From a virus, in the IMG/VR virus record IMGVR_UViG_3300011982_000013, positions 1 through 6,450 of that record: a DNA stretch of 6,450 nucleotides, one strand, 5' to 3'. Shown here piece after piece: positions 1 through 6,450 of the stretch (position 1 is its first letter; each line of letters opens with the position of its first letter). Both the position numbers and the translations under genes were made by a program. The notes beneath the pieces were generated by a model. It was not told the origin of the DNA, ran no database searches, and worked only from the letters and a program-made list of their open reading frames with translations.

Positions 1-97
1 GGCGGCCTCCTCGTCAAAGAGAGAGGGAAGGAGCGTCTGGTGAACGTAGCGACTCCAGAGTCTTCTATCTACGTCGTCATTCACAACGAGGCGAGAG
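1..97. repeat. Terminal redundancy: 1..97 is identical to 6354..6450, consistent with a circular replicon of 6353 bp written with overlap
   Basis: Exact 97-nt match read directly from the sequence (ggcggcctcctcgtcaaagagagagggaagg...gaggcgagag at both ends). The offset between copies is 6353. Confidence 0.9.
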
Positions 98-384
98 GGC
101 ACGAGCTGGAAGAGCTCATCGTCTGAAAGGTCGCTACTTGCATAATCACCATTGCGCGCCTTGAGCTGAGAGATGATAGACGCACGTTCTTGCTCCGTAA
201 GGCGAAGGTCAAGCGCCCGGGCGAGGTCGCCGGTGGGAAGGCCGGTGTTTTCGTTGATTGGAAATACGATTTCCGCACGAGTAGCATCGACCATCGGAAT
301 TGCGAGCTCATCGAACTCGTTGTATCCGAAGTTGTCAGCGTCGCTTACACCGTGACGCATTATGATTTCTGCACGAGTTGCCAT
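1..384 (-). CDS. ORF133: 133-aa acidic hypothetical protein that wraps the origin (128 codons here plus 5 codons and TAG stop at 6336..6353). Possibly an internal scaffolding-like protein
   Basis: ATG at 384..382 lies 4 nt after the VP1 stop. Manual translation is MATRAEIIMRHGVSDADNFGYNEFDELAIPMVDATRAEIVFPINENTGLPTGDLARALDLRLTEQERASIISQLKARNGDYASSDLSDDELFQLVPSRLVVNDDVDRRLWSRYVHQTLLPSLFDEEAA, continuing over the circular junction as PPSDK*. There are no in-frame stops. It is on the same strand as all other genes and has a protein-like, D/E-rich composition. It is absent from the linear ORF track because it crosses the window boundary. No SD sequence; probably coupled to VP1. Confidence 0.5.
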   Translation of the reverse strand, partial: MATRAEIIMRHGVSDADNFGYNEFDELAIPMVDATRAEIVFPINENTGLPTGDLARALDLRLTEQERASIISQLKARNGDYASSDLSDDELFQLVPSRLVVNDDVDRRLWSRYVHQTLLPSLFDEEAA

Positions 385-388
385 AACA

Positions 389-2212
389 CTATATATCTTG
401 AGAACTTACACTCATTGGGCGAATCACTGAAATTCCGAACTGCGAGGCAACGAAAAACTGATCCGTTTTTTCACTTCCATCATAAGATAGAGCGAAAATT
501 CTATCTAGTTGGCGGGGGCTCACAAGCATCGTAGAAGGTACAACGCCTGAGCGGCTGTCATCTTCAGAAAGCTGTACCGGCTGAACTCCGGTCCACGCGG
601 AGAATTGACCATCGCGCCTAAATTCACCATGAAGTCTATCGTATGAAGCTTTGTACTCGTAGTATCGAGGAACGTATCCAAGTGGACGAGCGTACTTGGC
701 AAATTTCGCCTTTTCGATATTATTGCTAAGTTCCATGCCAAAAAGCGGCTGAAAACCAAGATCTTGAAACTCGGGAATGAAGTAATCGCCTCTACCTAGC
801 TTCAAATTGAAAGGGTCAACGCCATCAGCATTGTACTCGGTTTCAGGCACAATGGACATTATCGCCATAATTAGACCATGCTCTCTAGCTTCATAATGTA
901 TAGCGCGTCCGCTATCCGTGCCTACACCTCTACCAAAGATTTGCCCGACAGTCGTATCTGCACCTTGCGCGGTGGCTATAACTTCGGAGATGTCTACACT
1001 AGATGAAGTTCCACCTATATATTCCACTTGGTGTCTCATGAATTCTGGAAGTTTTTCACCAAAGTGAGCCTCTACCTGAGCTGCATAGTCATAGGCGCGC
1101 GCTCTACGTGTACGCTTCTGCATTTTTTCGAGGGCGAAGGCAGCGCGAATAGAGCGAGTCGAAACGCCGTCCCAAGCATTGGTAGAGGTGTTATCGATTT
1201 TGATAGCGTCAGCCTTAGCGTCGCCTTTGCCTGCAGATAAAACCGAAAGAGATTCCTTGGAAGTTGAAAGTCCAAGCGCAGAGGTCAGCGTAGGGGTGTT
1301 ATCTCCGAGTTCCGAAGGATAAACGCCCGTGAAATAGTCGTCCGAAAGCCAACGATAACGCAGGGTCATCATAGCTAAGACACGAGTTAGTTCACCATCA
1401 TCAGAAAAACCGATAGTTTCACCGCCTCCGAGGTCATCTATATTATAGCTGCCTATATTTTGGGGCTCATAATCTTGCCTTCTGTAAAAGTCTTGATAGA
1501 TTTTCTGATAAGCAAGTAGAGCGAAAGGATTAAACTTCTGTTCTACAGAGACTTGTTCAGCTAACCAATTCTTTAGAGTTTGCTTAGTAGCTACACCTAT
1601 TGTTTCTTTGTTAAAAGCGTCAAAAAAGCCCTTAATAAAGATGTCGGAGTAACTCTTACACTGAATTTCCGGCTTGAGCGTGCCATTTGAATAACGCTTA
1701 ACAGTGCAATTAACACCGTAACCAAGCATGTCTAAAAGGCGACAAGCACCCAGACCAAGGTTATAGCCAAGGGCATCTTTTGATTTTCCCTTGAGTTGCT
1801 GATATGCCTGATGTTGGGGAGGTATCGGTAAAACTCCACTCTCAAGGTAAAAAATCTCCGTAAGAACGTTAATAATATTAAGCGTAGGTACCGAAGAGTA
1901 GTTATCTGTTTTCTGGGTGACAGATTTTAGATAACGTTCACCGGTGTATAAGTTCTCGAAGCCTCTCCAGAGATGCCTATACGGAACGAAGAAAAAGTGC
2001 GTGTAGGTCTTGACGCGCACAAGAGCAGCTGTATTGAGCGGTTGCGTCCTAACGAGCTGATCTAGTGAGATTTGCGCTTTCTCTGAAGGGTTCAGATGGA
2101 GCGTCATTGTTGGCACAAGCATGCCAGCTGACATAGTATGGAGCGACCTGTGCGAAAGGTCGAACACGTTGCGCCGATAGTTCGGTGACGGCTGATGAAG
2201 GTGGAGTGCCAT
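389..2212 (-). CDS. VP1: Major capsid protein (Microviridae VP1 / F-protein family), 607 aa
   Basis: The N-terminal region RNVFDLSH...MSAGMLVP...ALVRVKTYTHFFFVPYRHLW matches the conserved gokushovirus VP1 N-terminus pattern (xF[DN]LSH, G.L[VI]P, FFvP.R.vW). The size is typical for the family. The RBS-like AAAGGAAG lies 10 nt upstream. The start is 1 nt after the Rep stop. Confidence 0.9.
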   Translation of the reverse strand: MALHLHQPSPNYRRNVFDLSHRSLHTMSAGMLVPTMTLHLNPSEKAQISLDQLVRTQPLNTAALVRVKTYTHFFFVPYRHLWRGFENLYTGERYLKSVTQKTDNYSSVPTLNIINVLTEIFYLESGVLPIPPQHQAYQQLKGKSKDALGYNLGLGACRLLDMLGYGVNCTVKRYSNGTLKPEIQCKSYSDIFIKGFFDAFNKETIGVATKQTLKNWLAEQVSVEQKFNPFALLAYQKIYQDFYRRQDYEPQNIGSYNIDDLGGGETIGFSDDGELTRVLAMMTLRYRWLSDDYFTGVYPSELGDNTPTLTSALGLSTSKESLSVLSAGKGDAKADAIKIDNTSTNAWDGVSTRSIRAAFALEKMQKRTRRARAYDYAAQVEAHFGEKLPEFMRHQVEYIGGTSSSVDISEVIATAQGADTTVGQIFGRGVGTDSGRAIHYEAREHGLIMAIMSIVPETEYNADGVDPFNLKLGRGDYFIPEFQDLGFQPLFGMELSNNIEKAKFAKYARPLGYVPRYYEYKASYDRLHGEFRRDGQFSAWTGVQPVQLSEDDSRSGVVPSTMLVSPRQLDRIFALSYDGSEKTDQFFVASQFGISVIRPMSVSSQDI

Positions 2213-2213
2213 A

Positions 2214-3596
2214 TTAACAGAACTTCCTTTTGTAATCGTTTAACTTCTTCGTTTTTACGCTGTCTTGTAACAGCAGAGAGGCTTCATTATTTGACCTCAC
2301 AACGAAAGTAGCACATTCTTCCGAAACTTCCAAATCATTGCACGAATTAAGGCAAGATAGCTCATAAGCGACAGACTCAAGTCCTTCAAAATCAGCGTAA
2401 TAACGTTTAAGGCGGAAGCTAAAGATTTTAGTGGCTAGTAACTGAAGGAGATCGTAGTACTCCATAGGGCTAATCCCAAGAGCAATGCAACTAACATAAG
2501 CACTATACGACGAACGAGCATCTTGGTAGGTCCATCCGATAAACCCAGAACGACTATACTCAAAACGATCGCGAAGATTATCAGCGTGAAGCCGAATAGA
2601 AAGTGTATAATCTCGATGTTTATCCAAAACTCTGATAGGGAATGGTATCTCATTGAATTTCAGTAATTTATCACCTAGGCCTCTTTCTCTTGCGTAGTCA
2701 TATGCGTAACGTATGACAGACAATGGGCGTACATCATTTGCGAGGCCAAAGCCTCGAGGGAGTGGGAGCGCTCGACGGAGTAGGTAAGAGGGGATAGCTT
2801 GCTCGCTAAGCTGAAGAGTTCGAGGGTCTTTGACGATTTGCGTAAAAACTCCTTGGATGAGAGTGCGATGCACAAAGCTCTTAATGTCACCAACATACAG
2901 CGAAAGCGGAAGGTTGGAATGCCAGACTTTTGGCCGACATACGCGTAAAGCTTCTCGAGGGAGAGCAGAGACAACACCATGAGAGGCAATATAACTTGAG
3001 AGATAGTTTGCAACTCCTTGAGTGTAAGAGGGGCGGACATCTGAACGACCAAATTTCCAACAGTCAGCCGAAAGCCTCCGTAGCTCGTCGAATTCTCGCT
3101 GGGGGAGCGCCTTGTAAAATAAAGCGATATGGTAATGTGCTCGGTGAGTGAACGAACCGTATTCCCCACAGGTGTAGTAGTAGAGATTGTCGGTGTACTT
3201 GATTTTCCTCCGAAGAGAGATACGCAAACGTTTGTAGTAATCCTGAACATCCTTATAATAGAGGTGTGTACAGCGATCACCATCAGCTTGAGCAGTCCGA
3301 GCGTTAGAGACAAGCGAAAGGCCGTAATCCAAAGGGCGACCAAGGATAGGAGGAACGCCAGGGCGAGTGCTATAGCTATAACCGTCATCATCATTATACT
3401 CATATAGAGGGGCGTTATCATTGCTGTAGGTTAGGGTGATAAACAAGCACTGATACCCCTCCTTACGGAGGGCAGAGTCGAAAGCTTGTATTCTTGAAGA
3501 ACGGGACCGTAGGGCATTAAGCCTGCACACGGGGCACGTTCCACACGAAACAACGTTTCCGTCCGCGAACCGAAGGGGGGATAAGCAGTACCTCAT
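2214..3596 (-). CDS. VP4: Rolling-circle replication initiation protein (Microviridae VP4 / gpA-like HUH endonuclease), 460 aa
   Basis: It carries RCR motif I (LFITLTY), motif II HUH (RAHYHIALF) and motif III with paired Tyr (VANYLSSYIAS, Y-x3-Y as in phiX A Y-VAK-Y). The N-terminal C-x13-CGTCPVCRL Cys cluster is typical of microvirus Rep. The gene is tightly linked to VP1. Confidence 0.9.
   Translation of the reverse strand: MRYCLSPLRFADGNVVSCGTCPVCRLNALRSRSSRIQAFDSALRKEGYQCLFITLTYSNDNAPLYEYNDDDGYSYSTRPGVPPILGRPLDYGLSLVSNARTAQADGDRCTHLYYKDVQDYYKRLRISLRRKIKYTDNLYYYTCGEYGSFTHRAHYHIALFYKALPQREFDELRRLSADCWKFGRSDVRPSYTQGVANYLSSYIASHGVVSALPREALRVCRPKVWHSNLPLSLYVGDIKSFVHRTLIQGVFTQIVKDPRTLQLSEQAIPSYLLRRALPLPRGFGLANDVRPLSVIRYAYDYARERGLGDKLLKFNEIPFPIRVLDKHRDYTLSIRLHADNLRDRFEYSRSGFIGWTYQDARSSYSAYVSCIALGISPMEYYDLLQLLATKIFSFRLKRYYADFEGLESVAYELSCLNSCNDLEVSEECATFVVRSNNEASLLLQDSVKTKKLNDYKRKFC
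2223..2230 (-). promoter_or_regulatory. Shine-Dalgarno-like AAAGGAAG, 10 nt upstream of the VP1 ATG
   Basis: The reverse complement of cttccttt is AAAGGAAG. The identical 8-mer precedes VP2. Confidence 0.5.
2435..2653 (-). CDS. Candidate embedded ORF (72 aa, two predicted TM helices) in the +1 frame inside the Rep C-terminal region. Speculative
   Basis: The translation MRYHSLSEFWINIEIIHFLFGFTLIIFAIVLSIVVLGLSDGPTKMLVRRIVLMLVALLLGLALWSTTISFSY is holin-like (about 70 aa, 2 TM). The same +1 frame is also open for 248 codons upstream (2675..3421). There is no SD, and alternate-frame hydrophobic ORFs are a common artefact. Confidence 0.15.
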   Translation of the reverse strand: MRYHSLSEFWINIEIIHFLFGFTLIIFAIVLSIVVLGLSDGPTKMLVRRIVLMLVALLLGLALWSTTISFSY

Positions 3597-3601
3597 CGCA
3601 A

Positions 3602-3964
3602 CTATTTGCCGTAGTTTTTGCTATACGCAACTACGTATACGATGTCGTGAAAGCGATTGGAGAGATGTCCGCTAACGGAGCGGCGGTTTGGATAGGCTAT
3701 AATGAAGCCTAAGCCGTATTTACCATTATACGTCTCTATGTACTTGTCATCATACTTAACCGAGATGTAGCCTTTGCGGCGAGCGTAGTGGCTGATATAT
3801 AGATAAGAGAGATTTACGAGGTCTTGAATGAACGAGTTGTCAGACTCATCATTGAGCTCGAAAGGGTGGCAAGCTCTGTTTAGACGCAGGTTATTCACTT
3901 GGTCGAGAGCGCGATAGCTTATGCGAGCGAAGTCTAAGACTTGCTTTACGGTCATTGTTCCCAT
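3602..3964 (-). CDS. ORF120: hypothetical Tyr-rich protein, paralog of ORF106 (true start may be Met4, MTVKQVLDF...)
   Basis: It is a same-strand ORF between ORF106 and Rep, with GAAAGG 10 nt upstream. The N-terminus MTVKQVLDFARISYRALDQVN aligns with ORF106 MTIREIFEHLQLPMSVLYDIN. Further shared blocks are F..L..L.YL and R.KGY[FI], plus a Tyr-rich C-terminus. Confidence 0.6.
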   Translation of the reverse strand: MGTMTVKQVLDFARISYRALDQVNNLRLNRACHPFELNDESDNSFIQDLVNLSYLYISHYARRKGYISVKYDDKYIETYNGKYGLGFIIAYPNRRSVSGHLSNRFHDIVYVVAYSKNYGK

Positions 3965-3966
3965 AA

Positions 3967-4287
3967 CTACATAACCTTTCTATACACCTTTACGGTGTGA
4001 TAGCTATTTGACTTCTTGAATAATTCGTAGACATTTGCTTCGTGATAATCTACAGAGGCGCTATCAGAAGAGCCACTCAAAATTATCGGATCTCGATGCT
4101 TCCTGAAGTAACCCTTAACTCTAAGTTCACGAGAACGAACAAAGCCGAGGTACTCGAGATGAGCGAGAAAAAAGTACTTGCACTCATCGTCAGGAGACTG
4201 AGATTGAAAGTAACTTCCATTACGATTGATGTCGTATAACACCGACATTGGGAGCTGGAGATGTTCAAAAATTTCTCTAATAGTCAT
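3967..4287 (-). CDS. ORF106: hypothetical Tyr-rich protein, first copy of the tandem paralog pair
   Basis: It is a 106-aa ORF on the coding strand and the first gene after the long noncoding region. It shows clear sequence similarity to ORF120 (see above). No SD is recognisable. Confidence 0.55.
   Translation of the reverse strand: MTIREIFEHLQLPMSVLYDINRNGSYFQSQSPDDECKYFFLAHLEYLGFVRSRELRVKGYFRKHRDPIILSGSSDSASVDYHEANVYELFKKSNSYHTVKVYRKVM
3975..3980 (-). promoter_or_regulatory. SD-like GAAAGG, 10 nt upstream of the ORF120 ATG
   Basis: Reverse complement of cctttc. Confidence 0.35.
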
Positions 4288-4425
4288 TGTTGCGAAGGCG
4301 AGAGGGGATGTTCATCTCTCACAATACAAAGGTACGACAAATTCCCGAAACTACCAAACATTTACAAAGATTTACCTTTGGTGTACTCCTGGGATGCACC
4401 GCAGGCTAGGATAGATTGACGAGGG

Positions 4426-4436
4426 GAAAGTGAGTG
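4426..4436. repeat. Direct repeat gaaagtgagtg, copy 1. It overlaps a 7-bp hairpin at 4427..4445 (aaagtga / gtgtg / tcacttt) that is followed by TTT
   Basis: Exact 11-mer repeated at 4512..4522. The flanks are also similar (gacgagggGAAAGTGAGTG vs gacaGAAAGTGAGTG). Confidence 0.6.
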
Positions 4437-4511
4437 TGTCACTTTTCCGTAATATATCAAGAACCGGGAGCGCAGAGACCTATTGCGCCGTTTTACCGCA
4501 AAGAACCGACA

Positions 4512-4522
4512 GAAAGTGAGTG
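4512..4522. repeat. Direct repeat gaaagtgagtg, copy 2. Another small hairpin is possible here (gaaag ... gtgcac ... ctttc)
   Basis: Exact match to 4426..4436, 86 nt downstream. Confidence 0.6.
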
Positions 4523-4544
4523 CACCCCTTTCTAGGTGTAAGGT

Positions 4545-4605
4545 GGGTTGTTGTTAAAATATGTTATTATACGTTAAGTTTTATTAATCATACCTTAGTT
4601 TTGCG
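4545..4605. promoter_or_regulatory. AT-rich tract within the intergenic region. The coding (minus) strand carries a perfect TATAAT (4571..4566) and an ATTAATAA octamer (4588..4581) shared with the phiX174-type origin core
   Basis: The plus strand reads ttgttgttaaaatatgttattatacgttaagttttattaatcataccttag. No good -35 partner was found, and the match to the phiX ori (gATATTAATAAcac vs tgATTAATAAaac) is partial. Confidence 0.3.
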
Positions 4606-4610
4606 GGGCG

Positions 4611-4740
4611 CCCGGATACGGCACTACGTTGCACTTGCCTACGCTAGGGCGCTCGTACCACACGCGCGCGCGTGGGAGGCGCGCGCACGCGCGCGATCCT
4701 CGCTTTAGCTGGGGCACTGCAGACGTAGCACCTATCCGGG
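4611..4740. repeat. Large imperfect inverted repeat (cruciform) with outer arms cccggata...tatccggg and a GC-only alternating purine-pyrimidine core at 4661..4695
   Basis: 4611..4618 cccggata pairs with 4733..4740 tatccggg, and partial arm matches continue inward. The core cacgcgcgcgcgtg (a perfect 14-nt palindrome) plus gcgcgcgcacgcgcgcg can form a 10-bp G/C stem (4665..4674 with 4686..4695). The core is Z-DNA-prone. Confidence 0.6.
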
Positions 4741-4756
4741 CTTAGCTCCCTCGGTT

Positions 4757-4776
4757 GCTCGTGCTTACGCACGAGC
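4757..4776. repeat. Perfect 8-bp hairpin gctcgtgc-ttac-gcacgagc
   Basis: Read directly from the sequence. It is a tetraloop hairpin in the ORF-free region. Confidence 0.6.
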
Positions 4777-4905
4777 CGTCGTTATGAACGAGTACTCGAC
4801 CAAAGGTCTCCTACTCGTACTGGAGCTACCTCGTTGTTTGTAAGCGGTAACAGCATTATCACCAAACATAGGTTAATTTTATATATGGTGAAGTCGTTAG
4901 CTATA

Positions 4906-5040
4906 GCTGTAACTGCACCCCCCTTATCGACCAACTGCGAAGCTATTCCTTTTGTGCTGACGTGCAATTTCGTACCTCATTGCACTAACGCACAAAAGGG
5001 CTTCTGATGCAGTTGGGCGATAAGGAGATGCAGTTACAGC
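4906..5040. repeat. Long interrupted hairpin of about 135 nt with about 49 paired bp. Candidate complementary-strand (single-strand) origin or packaging element
   Basis: Paired segments are 4906..4917 with 5029..5040 (12 bp, perfect), 4922..4929 with 5017..5024, 4931..4938 with 5008..5015, 4939..4943 with 4999..5003, 4948..4956 with 4990..4998, and 4962..4968 with 4979..4985. The loop is ttcgtacctc. Each arm also contains internal direct repeats (gatgcagtt twice on the right arm, aactgc twice on the left arm). Confidence 0.6.
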
Positions 5041-5064
5041 GGTGGCTAGTGTACGCCATCACAT

Positions 5065-5128
5065 ATAACAAAAGCACCCACGCGCCTCAAACGCTGTGGT
5101 GCAACGGTTGGGCGCGCGGGTGTTTTTT
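5065..5128. terminator. Candidate bidirectional intrinsic-terminator-like hairpin about 45 nt downstream of the VP2 stop
   Basis: Stem 5075..5086 cacccacgcgcc pairs with 5111..5122 ggcgcgcgggtg (11 of 12 bp), followed by TTTTTT (5123..5128). On the coding (minus) strand the stem is followed by CTTTTGTTAT (5074..5065). The 24-nt loop is long for a canonical terminator. Confidence 0.35.
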
Positions 5129-5165
5129 CGCTCCGCGGGGGGCTCCTTGGATCTGCAGTTACATG

Positions 5166-6170
5166 CTACTTGGCGTGGCTCATGAAGTTTGCCATTCCAT
5201 TCAGGAGGATGCTAGTACCTTGTAGCATTCTATCGACAGGAGCAAACTTTATCTGCGTTTCGTAGTAGCGAGACTGAGTATCCTTTGACTTTATTTCTGA
5301 CTTGATTTTCTCCTCGACGAAGCGCTGAGTTTTGCGAAGGATGACAGCATTTTCCGCTATTACGTCTTGCTGTAAAGTCTCCGTTAGAGCTTTCTTCATA
5401 AGCAACTCCTTTTGAGCGTAAGAGAGCTGAGTTTGAGCGCGGATATACGCCATAGTGACAAAGAGCGACTTTATCTTAGCTTGAATCTCCAACACCTTTG
5501 CAGGGGCAGTGTGCTTGAGCTCGAATTCAGCTAGGAGAGTTTGCGCCTGAATATAGTCAGCTTGATTAGCTGCAGCGAGGGCTTCAGATTGCAACTTCTT
5601 CAAATCAGCCTCCTCGAACTTGCGCTGTCTAGCGACATTATAAAGAGTGCTATCCGTTTGGGCGCGAACGTTTGCTAGTTCAGCTTCGTTCTTATCTTTT
5701 CGAGTTTCATTATCCGTCTCTATGCCTTGCGTTTCAGCTTGTGTTTTAGCTATATCGGCTTCGACTTTCTGTTTCTGAAGGTCTATTAATTGCTGTTGCT
5801 GTGCCATAGCGGCGATTTGCGCGCCGCCAGAGGCAACGCCTTGACCAAGGGTGCCTAGAGCGTTTTCAGCTCGGGGTGCTCCTTCTCCAGAGGCGGAGGT
5901 CACCGCCTGGGTGATACCAGGCGTAATATTCGACAGGGCGAGTGCAGGGTTAATACCTGCTTCCTCGAGACGCTTGCGCTGATTAGCTGGAGTGTTATAT
6001 TCATTGCTCCTATTCCATTGCTCGAGGTTGAAGCGGTTTTGCGCTTCCATGAGTTTCTGTTGGGTAAGAGCGTTGAACTTATTAGTGGAGGCTTGCCCGA
6101 TAGCGGACAAACCTCCACCAATAAGGCTGCTACCTCCAGCGATTAGCGCGGCTAATACAGCTGGAGCCAT
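5166..6170 (-). CDS. VP2: Minor capsid / DNA pilot protein (Microviridae VP2, H-like), 334 aa
   Basis: It has a Gly-rich hydrophobic N-terminus (AAIAGGSSLIGGGLSAIG) and the conserved ...QRKRLEEAGINPALA... motif (gokushovirus VP2 consensus K-[DE]-AG-[LI]-NP). The rest is a Q/A-rich coiled-coil-like region. AAAGGAAG lies 7 nt upstream. Confidence 0.8.
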   Translation of the reverse strand: MAPAVLAALIAGGSSLIGGGLSAIGQASTNKFNALTQQKLMEAQNRFNLEQWNRSNEYNTPANQRKRLEEAGINPALALSNITPGITQAVTSASGEGAPRAENALGTLGQGVASGGAQIAAMAQQQQLIDLQKQKVEADIAKTQAETQGIETDNETRKDKNEAELANVRAQTDSTLYNVARQRKFEEADLKKLQSEALAAANQADYIQAQTLLAEFELKHTAPAKVLEIQAKIKSLFVTMAYIRAQTQLSYAQKELLMKKALTETLQQDVIAENAVILRKTQRFVEEKIKSEIKSKDTQSRYYETQIKFAPVDRMLQGTSILLNGMANFMSHAK

Positions 6171-6172
6171 AG

Positions 6173-6304
6173 CTATTCTTCCTTTTCCATTTCACGTGGA
6201 ACGTCCTCGGGCTTCTCCTTGGGCTTGGGGACAAGACCGAGGATAGAGATAATGAGAGGCACAACGTCTACGATAAACTTGAGCCACTTGATTACCTTGT
6301 TCAT
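6173..6304 (-). CDS. ORF44: small single-TM protein (MNKVIKWLKFIVDVVPLIISILGLVPKPKEKPEDVPREMEKEE), candidate membrane or lysis-related peptide
   Basis: Manual translation of the 165-nt gap between the ORF133 stop (6336) and the VP2 start (6170). It has a hydrophobic core of about 19 residues followed by a K/E/P-rich charged tail. It is on the same strand as the other genes. Its stop overlaps the VP2 RBS and is 2 nt before the VP2 ATG. It is below the 60-aa cutoff of the ORF track. No SD. Confidence 0.3.
   Translation of the reverse strand: MNKVIKWLKFIVDVVPLIISILGLVPKPKEKPEDVPREMEKEE
6178..6185 (-). promoter_or_regulatory. Shine-Dalgarno-like AAAGGAAG, 7 nt upstream of the VP2 ATG (inside the last codons of ORF44)
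   Basis: Reverse complement of cttccttt. The same 8-mer precedes VP1. Confidence 0.5.
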
Positions 6305-6335
6305 AATTGTAAGTATTAAGAGTTATACATACCAG

Positions 6336-6353
6336 CTACTTGTCGCTGGGTGG
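6336..6353 (-). CDS. 3' end of wrap-around ORF133 (codons PPSDK plus TAG stop)
   Basis: This continues the frame of the 1..384 minus ORF across the circular junction (position 6354 corresponds to position 1). The stop is cta at 6336..6338. Confidence 0.45.
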   Translation of the reverse strand, partial: PPSDK

Positions 6354-6450
6354 GGCGGCCTCCTCGTCAAAGAGAGAGGGAAGGAGCGTCTGGTGAACGT
6401 AGCGACTCCAGAGTCTTCTATCTACGTCGTCATTCACAACGAGGCGAGAG
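6354..6450. repeat. Duplicate of 1..97 (circular overlap)
   Basis: Exact identity to the window start. Confidence 0.9.

Follow-up and report, generated by a model that had tools for sequence, protein, structure and literature searches.

A long hairpin conserved among small single-stranded DNA phages of Bacteroidales: a possible complementary-strand origin with promoter-like blocks

A phage of this kind injects its plus strand only, so that synthesis of the second strand by the host has to come first. To our knowledge, it is not known how this second strand is started in microviruses outside the phiX/G4 group. Published work only points to hairpins as candidates in microviruses (PMC9865509), and the need for such a hairpin is therefore not a new idea. 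The question considered here is whether a long hairpin found in a viral DNA of 6450 nt (IMG/VR record IMGVR_UViG_3300011982_000013, positions 1–6450; this whole stretch is called the window below) can be such a starting site, and, if so, which host enzyme would use it.

Bases 1–97 of the window are an exact repeat of bases 6354–6450 (97 nt), which indicates a complete circular genome of 6353 nt. All genuine genes are located on the minus strand and include those of the major capsid protein (389–2212; Pfam Phage_F and PHROG 514), a rolling-circle Rep of the REP_ORF2-G2P family with the motif HYHIALF (2214–3596), two small ORFs (3602–3964 and 3967–4287) and the DNA pilot protein (5166–6170, with the stop at 5166). 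The genome is that of a member of the Microviridae. Since Microviridae package the strand of mRNA sense and all the genes lie on the minus strand, the packaged strand, which enters the cell, is the reverse complement of the window. Among 5.8 billion proteins, the capsid protein has one close relative only (75% identity), encoded on the contigs L095 and L096, which are identical across the non-coding region. A hydrophobic ORF of 248 aa (2675–3421, minus strand) is nested in the Rep gene in another frame, possibly as an overprinted gene; in relatives, nested ORFs of 180–183 aa occupy this place.

The sole long non-coding region of the window (4288–5165) contains the hairpin. In the viral sense, the stop of the pilot protein gene is followed by a terminator-like stem, the long hairpin, a second long hairpin (H2), a small hairpin, a nick motif, a promoter and the first ATG (4287). 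The initial annotation had described an interrupted hairpin of 135 nt and about 49 bp, composed of collinear stems, at 4906–5040. It was found at these positions with 50–52 pairs in five to six collinear stems, and its 12-bp outer stem GCTGTAACTGCA/TGCAGTTACAGC is perfect (13 bp on the minus strand). Folding of the viral (minus) strand with DNA parameters, which had been suggested as a check, gave a single interrupted hairpin of −47.3 kcal/mol (z −12.5); the plus strand of the same segment, taken as single-stranded DNA, gave −47.8 kcal/mol (z −11.7), and 0 of 200 shuffles were as stable as the 4906–5040 fold. The functional strand of this core, which is defined by the DNA folds and by compensatory changes in L095, was taken to be the packaged viral (minus) strand. 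Local folding with a span of 240 nt extends the core to the full hairpin at 4871–5078 (minus), which has 208 nt and 75 bp and a stability of −57.1 kcal/mol as DNA.

The terminal loop of the hairpin, GAGGTACGAA, has 10 nt and belongs to the apical stem-loop GTGCAAT-GAGGTACGAA-ATTGCAC (4962–4985, minus). Two bulges, ATCA on the 5′ arm (5005–5008, minus; kept as TCA in L095) and AATA (4947→4944), are staggered across a GAAGC/GCTTC helix. The internal sub-repeats noted earlier, gatgcagtt and aactgc, are indeed each present twice. The suggestion that the element arose by duplication did not hold, as the sub-repeats are not retained as repeats in L095, where AACTGC/GCAGTT became AAGTGC/GCACTT by compensatory change. 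Another repeat, TGTAACTGCA, has one copy directly after the pilot protein stop (5154–5163, minus) and a second at the hairpin base on the 5′ side (5029–5038), and both copies are present in L095 as TAACTGCA.

All six reading frames are closed in the hairpin region in the window and three relatives, and a coding function was thus ruled out across these four genomes. A tRNA and tmRNA scan of the window found none. With DNA parameters, the two strands of the window hairpin are of equal stability, so that folding does not discriminate between them; the strand asymmetry of G-T pairs is likewise uninformative for the lineage of the window and strong for a more distant group, termed clade C below.

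The pairing is conserved in related genomes through many compensatory changes, and stem-disrupting substitutions, which had been named as the observation that would speak against the hairpin, do not prevail. The non-coding regions of L095 and the window align throughout at ~80% identity. From 72 pairs of the window hairpin, 38 are unchanged in L095, 17 are changed on both sides and still pair, one bears a one-sided change that preserves pairing, 13 are broken and three fall in gaps; the broken pairs are mostly at the base and the apex, where the alignment slips. The hairpin of L095 is 223 nt long (−80.7 kcal/mol), being lengthened by an apical insert. This insert, at ~4552–4640 of L095 and also present in L096, is a 78-nt AT-rich perfect palindrome positioned exactly at the hairpin apex, where it replaces the apical CAAT/ATTG; it could represent a small mobile palindrome, or indicate that expansion is tolerated at the apex. 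In six further homologues with a 78-pair consensus, double changes were found in 28 pairs versus 11.6 in shuffles (0 of 500 reaching that number), and 88% of cells are paired, versus 79% in shuffles and 34–42% with the partners slid. Covariation was counted within closer subgroups because a plain alignment of all the hairpins mis-registers the basal stems.

How widespread such hairpins are was estimated by folding 186 microvirus loci with DNA parameters and comparing the energies of single hairpins. The result is bimodal: a single hairpin reaches −47 kcal/mol or below in 21 loci, which represent 18 distinct sequences, and all the others are at −35 kcal/mol or above. These 21 long hairpins comprise 185–239 nt and 62–97 bp, with energies from −47 to −81 kcal/mol. 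Loci L097/98, L100, L101, L102/103 and L107–109, with capsid proteins 40–49% identical, have a homologous hairpin in the same place as the window, flanked by the pilot protein gene and the gene that opens the next operon, and across the relatives these homologous hairpins measure 146–223 nt. Dulem virus 259 (GenBank PP511881.1) has a hairpin at this place too, where its record carries no annotation. The hairpin is not universal among relatives, because Microvirus D_HF33_14 has no such structure. The long hairpin is real and is conserved in a set of small Bacteroidales phages with single-stranded DNA. Exact DNA searches of viral contigs with the base pattern of the hairpin and a 22-mer from the origin block, and of metagenome contigs with a 20-mer, gave no match; the only match of a 20-mer in genome contigs was a chance one, within coding sequence of a Ruminiclostridium MAG.

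The primary sigma factor of Bacteroidetes (sigma-A) recognizes the consensus TAnnTTTG at −7 and TTTG near −33 (PMC7366714). Ten homologous hairpins, with a mean identity of 60%, were aligned, and 21 columns proved invariant. Of these, 16 cluster in three blocks: CAAT.AG, which precedes the apex on its 5′ side; CG..ATTG, which follows it on the 3′ side; and, further along the 3′ arm, (T)A.CTT(T)G. The first two blocks are held by the apical stem-loop. The distance from ATTG to TA is constant at 18–19 nt, and the blocks ATTG and TAnCTT(T/C)G look like the Bacteroidetes sigma-A promoter in both sequence and spacing. In the window, the −33-like ATTG (4968→4965) agrees with TTTG in three of four bases and is followed after 19 nt by the −7-like element TAGCTTCG (third block; 4938–4945, minus, 3′ arm), which has five of the six specified bases, with TTCG in place of TTTG; the significance of this single match is modest. 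L095 shares TAGCTTCG with the window, L108 and L109 have CACCTTTG, and relatives carry an exact TAGCTTTG or TACCTTTG at the homologous position. A sigma-70 promoter scan of the region found none, which fits a host that does not use this promoter type.

An exact TAnnTTTG is present on the 3′ arm of 14 of the 18 distinct long hairpins, the other four having one mismatch in the homologous place, and is found in 0 of 27 weaker hairpins, with ~0.085 expected per arm. By our own estimate, the support from this motif is modest (p roughly 0.001–0.003); the statistics draw on three or four independent lineages. Most lineages leave 2–6 bases of the −7 box unpaired: the AATA bulge of the window takes in the first two bases of TAGCTTCG, a TTT bulge occurs in L101, L102 and L107–109, clade C has a TCT bulge, and L100 and L188 have an internal loop. 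Dulem virus 259 differs in having no bulge, the whole −7 box being paired. The partner of the box on the 5′ arm varies by lineage and the box itself is constant, so that the box is constrained as a sequence and not as a pairing. The orientation of the motif is the same in all lineages: it is located on the 3′ arm and directed toward the base of the hairpin, which makes the 5′ arm the template.

Clade C (L163, L166, L169–L171, L173, L175, L179 and L182; capsid proteins ~30% identical) has hairpins of 192–239 nt in a different intergenic region, between an ORF of 154–156 aa and the pilot protein gene. Their 3′ arm contains TATCTTTG with a 3-nt bulge, and this hairpin family is apparently unrelated to that of the window. 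The clade C hairpins strongly favor the viral strand, by ~13 kcal/mol, and contain ~10 G-T pairs. The 5′ arm in clade C also bears TAnnTTTG, which indicates that AT-rich composition inflates chance matches to the motif.

A related microvirus was found integrated in a Porphyromonas-like chromosome in two samples (L188, 9430–15582, and L189, 607–6188), next to an L-serine dehydratase gene that is 88% identical to the enzyme of an uncultured Porphyromonas. This prophage encodes no integrase, its junctions are between the Rep and capsid genes, and it keeps a hairpin of 212 nt intact and internal. The nearest GenBank phages are from saliva. In addition, the window has a promoter of the Bacteroidetes type, TTTG-N20-TACCTTTG (4327–4358, minus; consensus as in PMC7366714), upstream of the first gene, and the full motif stands in the same place in seven of eight related genomes; no Shine–Dalgarno sequence is apparent before this gene. 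A Bacteroidales host is well supported by this promoter motif, the Porphyromonas-like prophage and the saliva-derived phages taken together.

Between the pilot protein gene and the hairpin stands a GC-rich stem (5067–5128; without assigned strand) with an A-run before and a T-run after it, which resembles a bidirectional intrinsic terminator. Folded as RNA, its viral sense gives −40.5 kcal/mol (z −5.5) and its antisense −36.2 kcal/mol; the stem is conserved in L095, and part of it was picked up by the scan that looked for sigma-70 promoters. On the other side, the GC-rich hairpin H2 (~4605–4750, minus) belongs to a segment of ~350 nt that is confined to the lineage of the window and L095, shows 14 compensated pairs against L095 and several G-T pairs, and could serve either as an additional single-strand initiation site or as a non-coding RNA. 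At 4757–4776 (minus), there is a perfect stem of 8 bp capped by a GTAA tetraloop (GNRA type); in the corresponding place, L095 has two hairpins sharing the loop GAACGCAGTGA.

Further downstream, a small hairpin GGCGCA...TGCGC (4469–4489, minus) stands just upstream of the phiX-like motif CTTGATATATTA (4450–4461, minus), a putative nick site of Rep. The small hairpin is a 100% conserved block in L095, and the same arrangement occurs in L107–109. We take the core of the phiX174 origin to be CAACTTGATATTAATAAC and its Rep nick site to be CAACTTG/ATATTAATAAC, with the core CTTGATAT. The latter was found in the 186 microvirus loci 119 times on the viral strand and 34 times on the other strand, with 17.5 expected (~7-fold enriched). 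The nick motif is kept in L095, L107–109 and L188 at the same relative place, and, judging from the sequence, CTTGATATATTA is probably the plus-strand origin. The distance from the long hairpin to this motif is 46–62 nt in L107–109 and L188 and 410 nt in the window, owing to the inserted segment.

Summarizing these data, it is likely that the hairpin is a complementary-strand origin of some priming type. The initial annotation had proposed a single-strand or primosome-assembly origin, and its general part stands in view of the covariation, the non-coding site upstream of the nick motif and the intact state of the hairpin in the prophage; membership in the families it named is not supported. 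The fuller reading, namely that the hairpin is a complementary (minus)-strand origin and probably a single-stranded DNA promoter for the host RNA polymerase, has in our opinion about an even chance of being right. The resemblance of the conserved blocks to the Bacteroidetes sigma-A promoter points to priming by RNA polymerase, of the M13 or Frpo type, rather than by PriA or DnaG.

The proposed mechanism is as follows. The packaged strand would fold after entry, and the 208-nt hairpin would rebuild a duplex stretch in the single-stranded genome. On the 3′ arm of its upper half, the −33-like ATTG and, 19 nt further on, the partly bulged-out −7-like TAGCTTCG may imitate a promoter for the primary sigma factor of the host. 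Host RNA polymerase would then bind and transcribe toward the hairpin base, using the 5′ arm as the template, and the RNA, complementary to the viral strand, would be extended by the replicative polymerase. The terminator-like stem ~30 nt past the base of the hairpin could end the primer; it carries a T-run for this direction as well. Several points count against such priming: the boxes of the window are imperfect, the apex is lost in L095, and the −7 box of Dulem virus 259 is paired. Besides, the known microviruses phiX174 and G4 use PriA or DnaG, not RNA polymerase.

The last point leads to the first alternative, a complementary-strand origin of the primosome or primase type, in which the hairpin would be recognized by PriA, as is the n′ site of phiX174, or by DnaG, as is the G4 origin, and the promoter-like blocks would be their binding determinants or a coincidence. 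It shares with RNA polymerase priming the same structural, covariation and positional evidence and has on its side the PriA and DnaG routes of the characterized Microviridae. All the homologues conserve (T)AACTGC or CCTGC close to the base of the 5′ arm, which would serve as the template, and this might also favor it, CTG being the start triplet of E. coli primase. Nevertheless, the entire non-coding region, compared by blastn with 50,697 phage records (phiX174 and G4 being assumed to be among them), gave no match at E ≤ 0.01, the hairpin is three to four times as long as that of n′, and the match to the sigma-A consensus at the right spacing would be left unexplained, so that we regard this type of priming as rather unlikely.

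The promoter-like elements could instead serve in double-stranded replicative form DNA, with the long inverted repeat acting as an operator or a supercoil-driven cruciform for early transcription toward the genes. The −33-like and −7-like elements do point toward the genes, tandem promoters are common, and the equal stability of the window hairpin on both strands is in agreement with such a role. A promoter in duplex DNA needs no complementary 5′ arm, yet 60–85 pairs are kept by compensatory change over the full length, and the conserved bulges would be meaningless there. A complete consensus promoter is already available beside the first gene, and the clade C hairpins favor the viral strand. 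An ordinary promoter of this kind seems unlikely to us.

It is still less probable that the hairpin functions in a transcript, as a 3′-UTR stabilizer, a processing site or an antisense RNA. As RNA, the viral sense folds better than the antisense (−81.7 vs. −72.3 kcal/mol), and covariation cannot separate RNA from DNA. However, G-T pairs are rare in the hairpin family (0–5 of 62–86 pairs), which suits DNA better than RNA, and a search of the whole window with Rfam covariance models gave no match at E ≤ 1. The hairpin comes after the terminator-like stem and before the only complete promoter, where the genome is transcribed least; no T-run follows it, and the invariant blocks that match a promoter would have no explanation.

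An accessory part in the plus-strand origin, such as Rep loading or termination, or a packaging signal, with no priming role, is very improbable. The nick motif is indeed close to the hairpin in most relatives, at the 46–62 nt given above, but in the window a structured insert of 350 nt separates the two and neither has been lost. In clade C, the hairpin occurs without an adjoining CTTGATAT in the non-coding region, and origins of the phiX type need only ~30 nt. A folded single-stranded attP for integration of the XerCD type, as in the CTX phage, or a selfish palindromic insertion could be thought of in view of the prophages without integrase and the AT-rich palindrome gained by L095, but the L188/L189 prophage opened between the Rep and capsid genes with its hairpin intact inside, and the hairpin is syntenic and covarying over divergent genomes, unlike a recent insertion, which makes this explanation extremely unlikely. 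A CTX-like attP is excluded for the L188/L189 prophage itself, as the arms are not at its ends, and is by homology unlikely for the window.

Priming at the hairpin by host RNA polymerase would have several consequences. What is new here is a defined hairpin family with covariation, a fixed genomic place, three invariant blocks and the signature of a Bacteroidetes promoter; these blocks suggest a concrete mechanism, mimicry of the unusual promoter of this phylum. If true, single-stranded DNA promoters extend to a phylum with a different sigma factor, and microviruses switched their priming strategy on moving to Bacteroidales hosts. The hairpin could then become a handle for single-stranded vectors or rolling-circle plasmids in gut and oral Bacteroidales and a marker for host prediction of uncultured microviruses. 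The most specific statement, that it is a single-stranded DNA promoter tuned to the primary sigma factor of Bacteroidetes (−33/−7), the first such promoter beyond the −35/−10 type of sigma-70 and the first minus-strand origin of Microviridae primed by RNA polymerase, is advanced tentatively and may well prove too strong.

Comparison with the known systems shows where this hairpin stands. The phiX174 n′ site and the G4 origin belong to the same virus family, answer the same biological need and likewise use an intergenic hairpin. They consist of ~55 nt or of three small hairpins between the F and G genes and are recognized by PriA or DnaG; unlike them, the hairpin described here has conserved blocks that resemble promoter elements. 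The earlier likening of the hairpin to the phiX and G4 origins and to ssoA failed at the level of sequence, which assigns it to none of these families.

The single-strand origins ssoA and ssoU of rolling-circle plasmids are also imperfect, strand-specific hairpins of ~150–250 nt upstream of the double-strand origin. Both are primed by RNA polymerase, and the sso sits upstream of the nick and is exposed last. The marks of ssoA, whose hosts are Firmicutes, are CS-6 (TAGCGT/A) in the terminal loop and RS-B. CS-6 is absent from the terminal loop GAGGTACGAA, TAGCTT being in the arm and not in the loop, RS-B was not identified in the hairpin, and blastn of the hairpin against 72,556 plasmids gave no match at E ≤ 1.

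The minus-strand origin of M13, f1 and fd, with its hairpins [B] and [C], is likewise formed by imperfect hairpins in the packaged strand of single-stranded DNA phages, and the intergenic region of these Ff phages has the same order of a terminator, the hairpin or hairpins and, immediately downstream, the nick site of the plus strand. The Ff hairpins present −35-like and −10-like elements to the host RNA polymerase, which makes the primer. The differences are that the window belongs to the Microviridae and not to the Inoviridae, that it has one hairpin (208 nt; 146–223 nt in the family) instead of two short ones, and that the consensus apparently mimicked is that of Bacteroidetes sigma-A, not sigma-70, with no sequence similarity between the two systems.

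The Frpo or ssi elements of F-like and IncI plasmids are long stem-loops as well, which rebuild a duplex promoter in the transferred single-stranded DNA. Frpo can serve in primer synthesis and drives early protein-coding genes on the transferred strand. Unlike this, a transcript from the hairpin of the window would be antisense and non-coding and would reach the terminator-like stem within ~100 nt, for which reason its only sensible role would be that of a primer; the sigma consensus also differs, and there is no similarity to any plasmid. Frpo is characterized by unpaired bases within or close to its −10 box, as Masai and Arai (1997, cited in PMC11541004) reportedly described, and the bulge of 2–6 nt within the −7 box in most lineages is a comparable trait. 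The hairpin studied here combines several traits of single-stranded DNA promoters: the entering strand forms a stable stem-loop, the orientation is one that would give a complementary RNA, and bases of the −7 box are unpaired.
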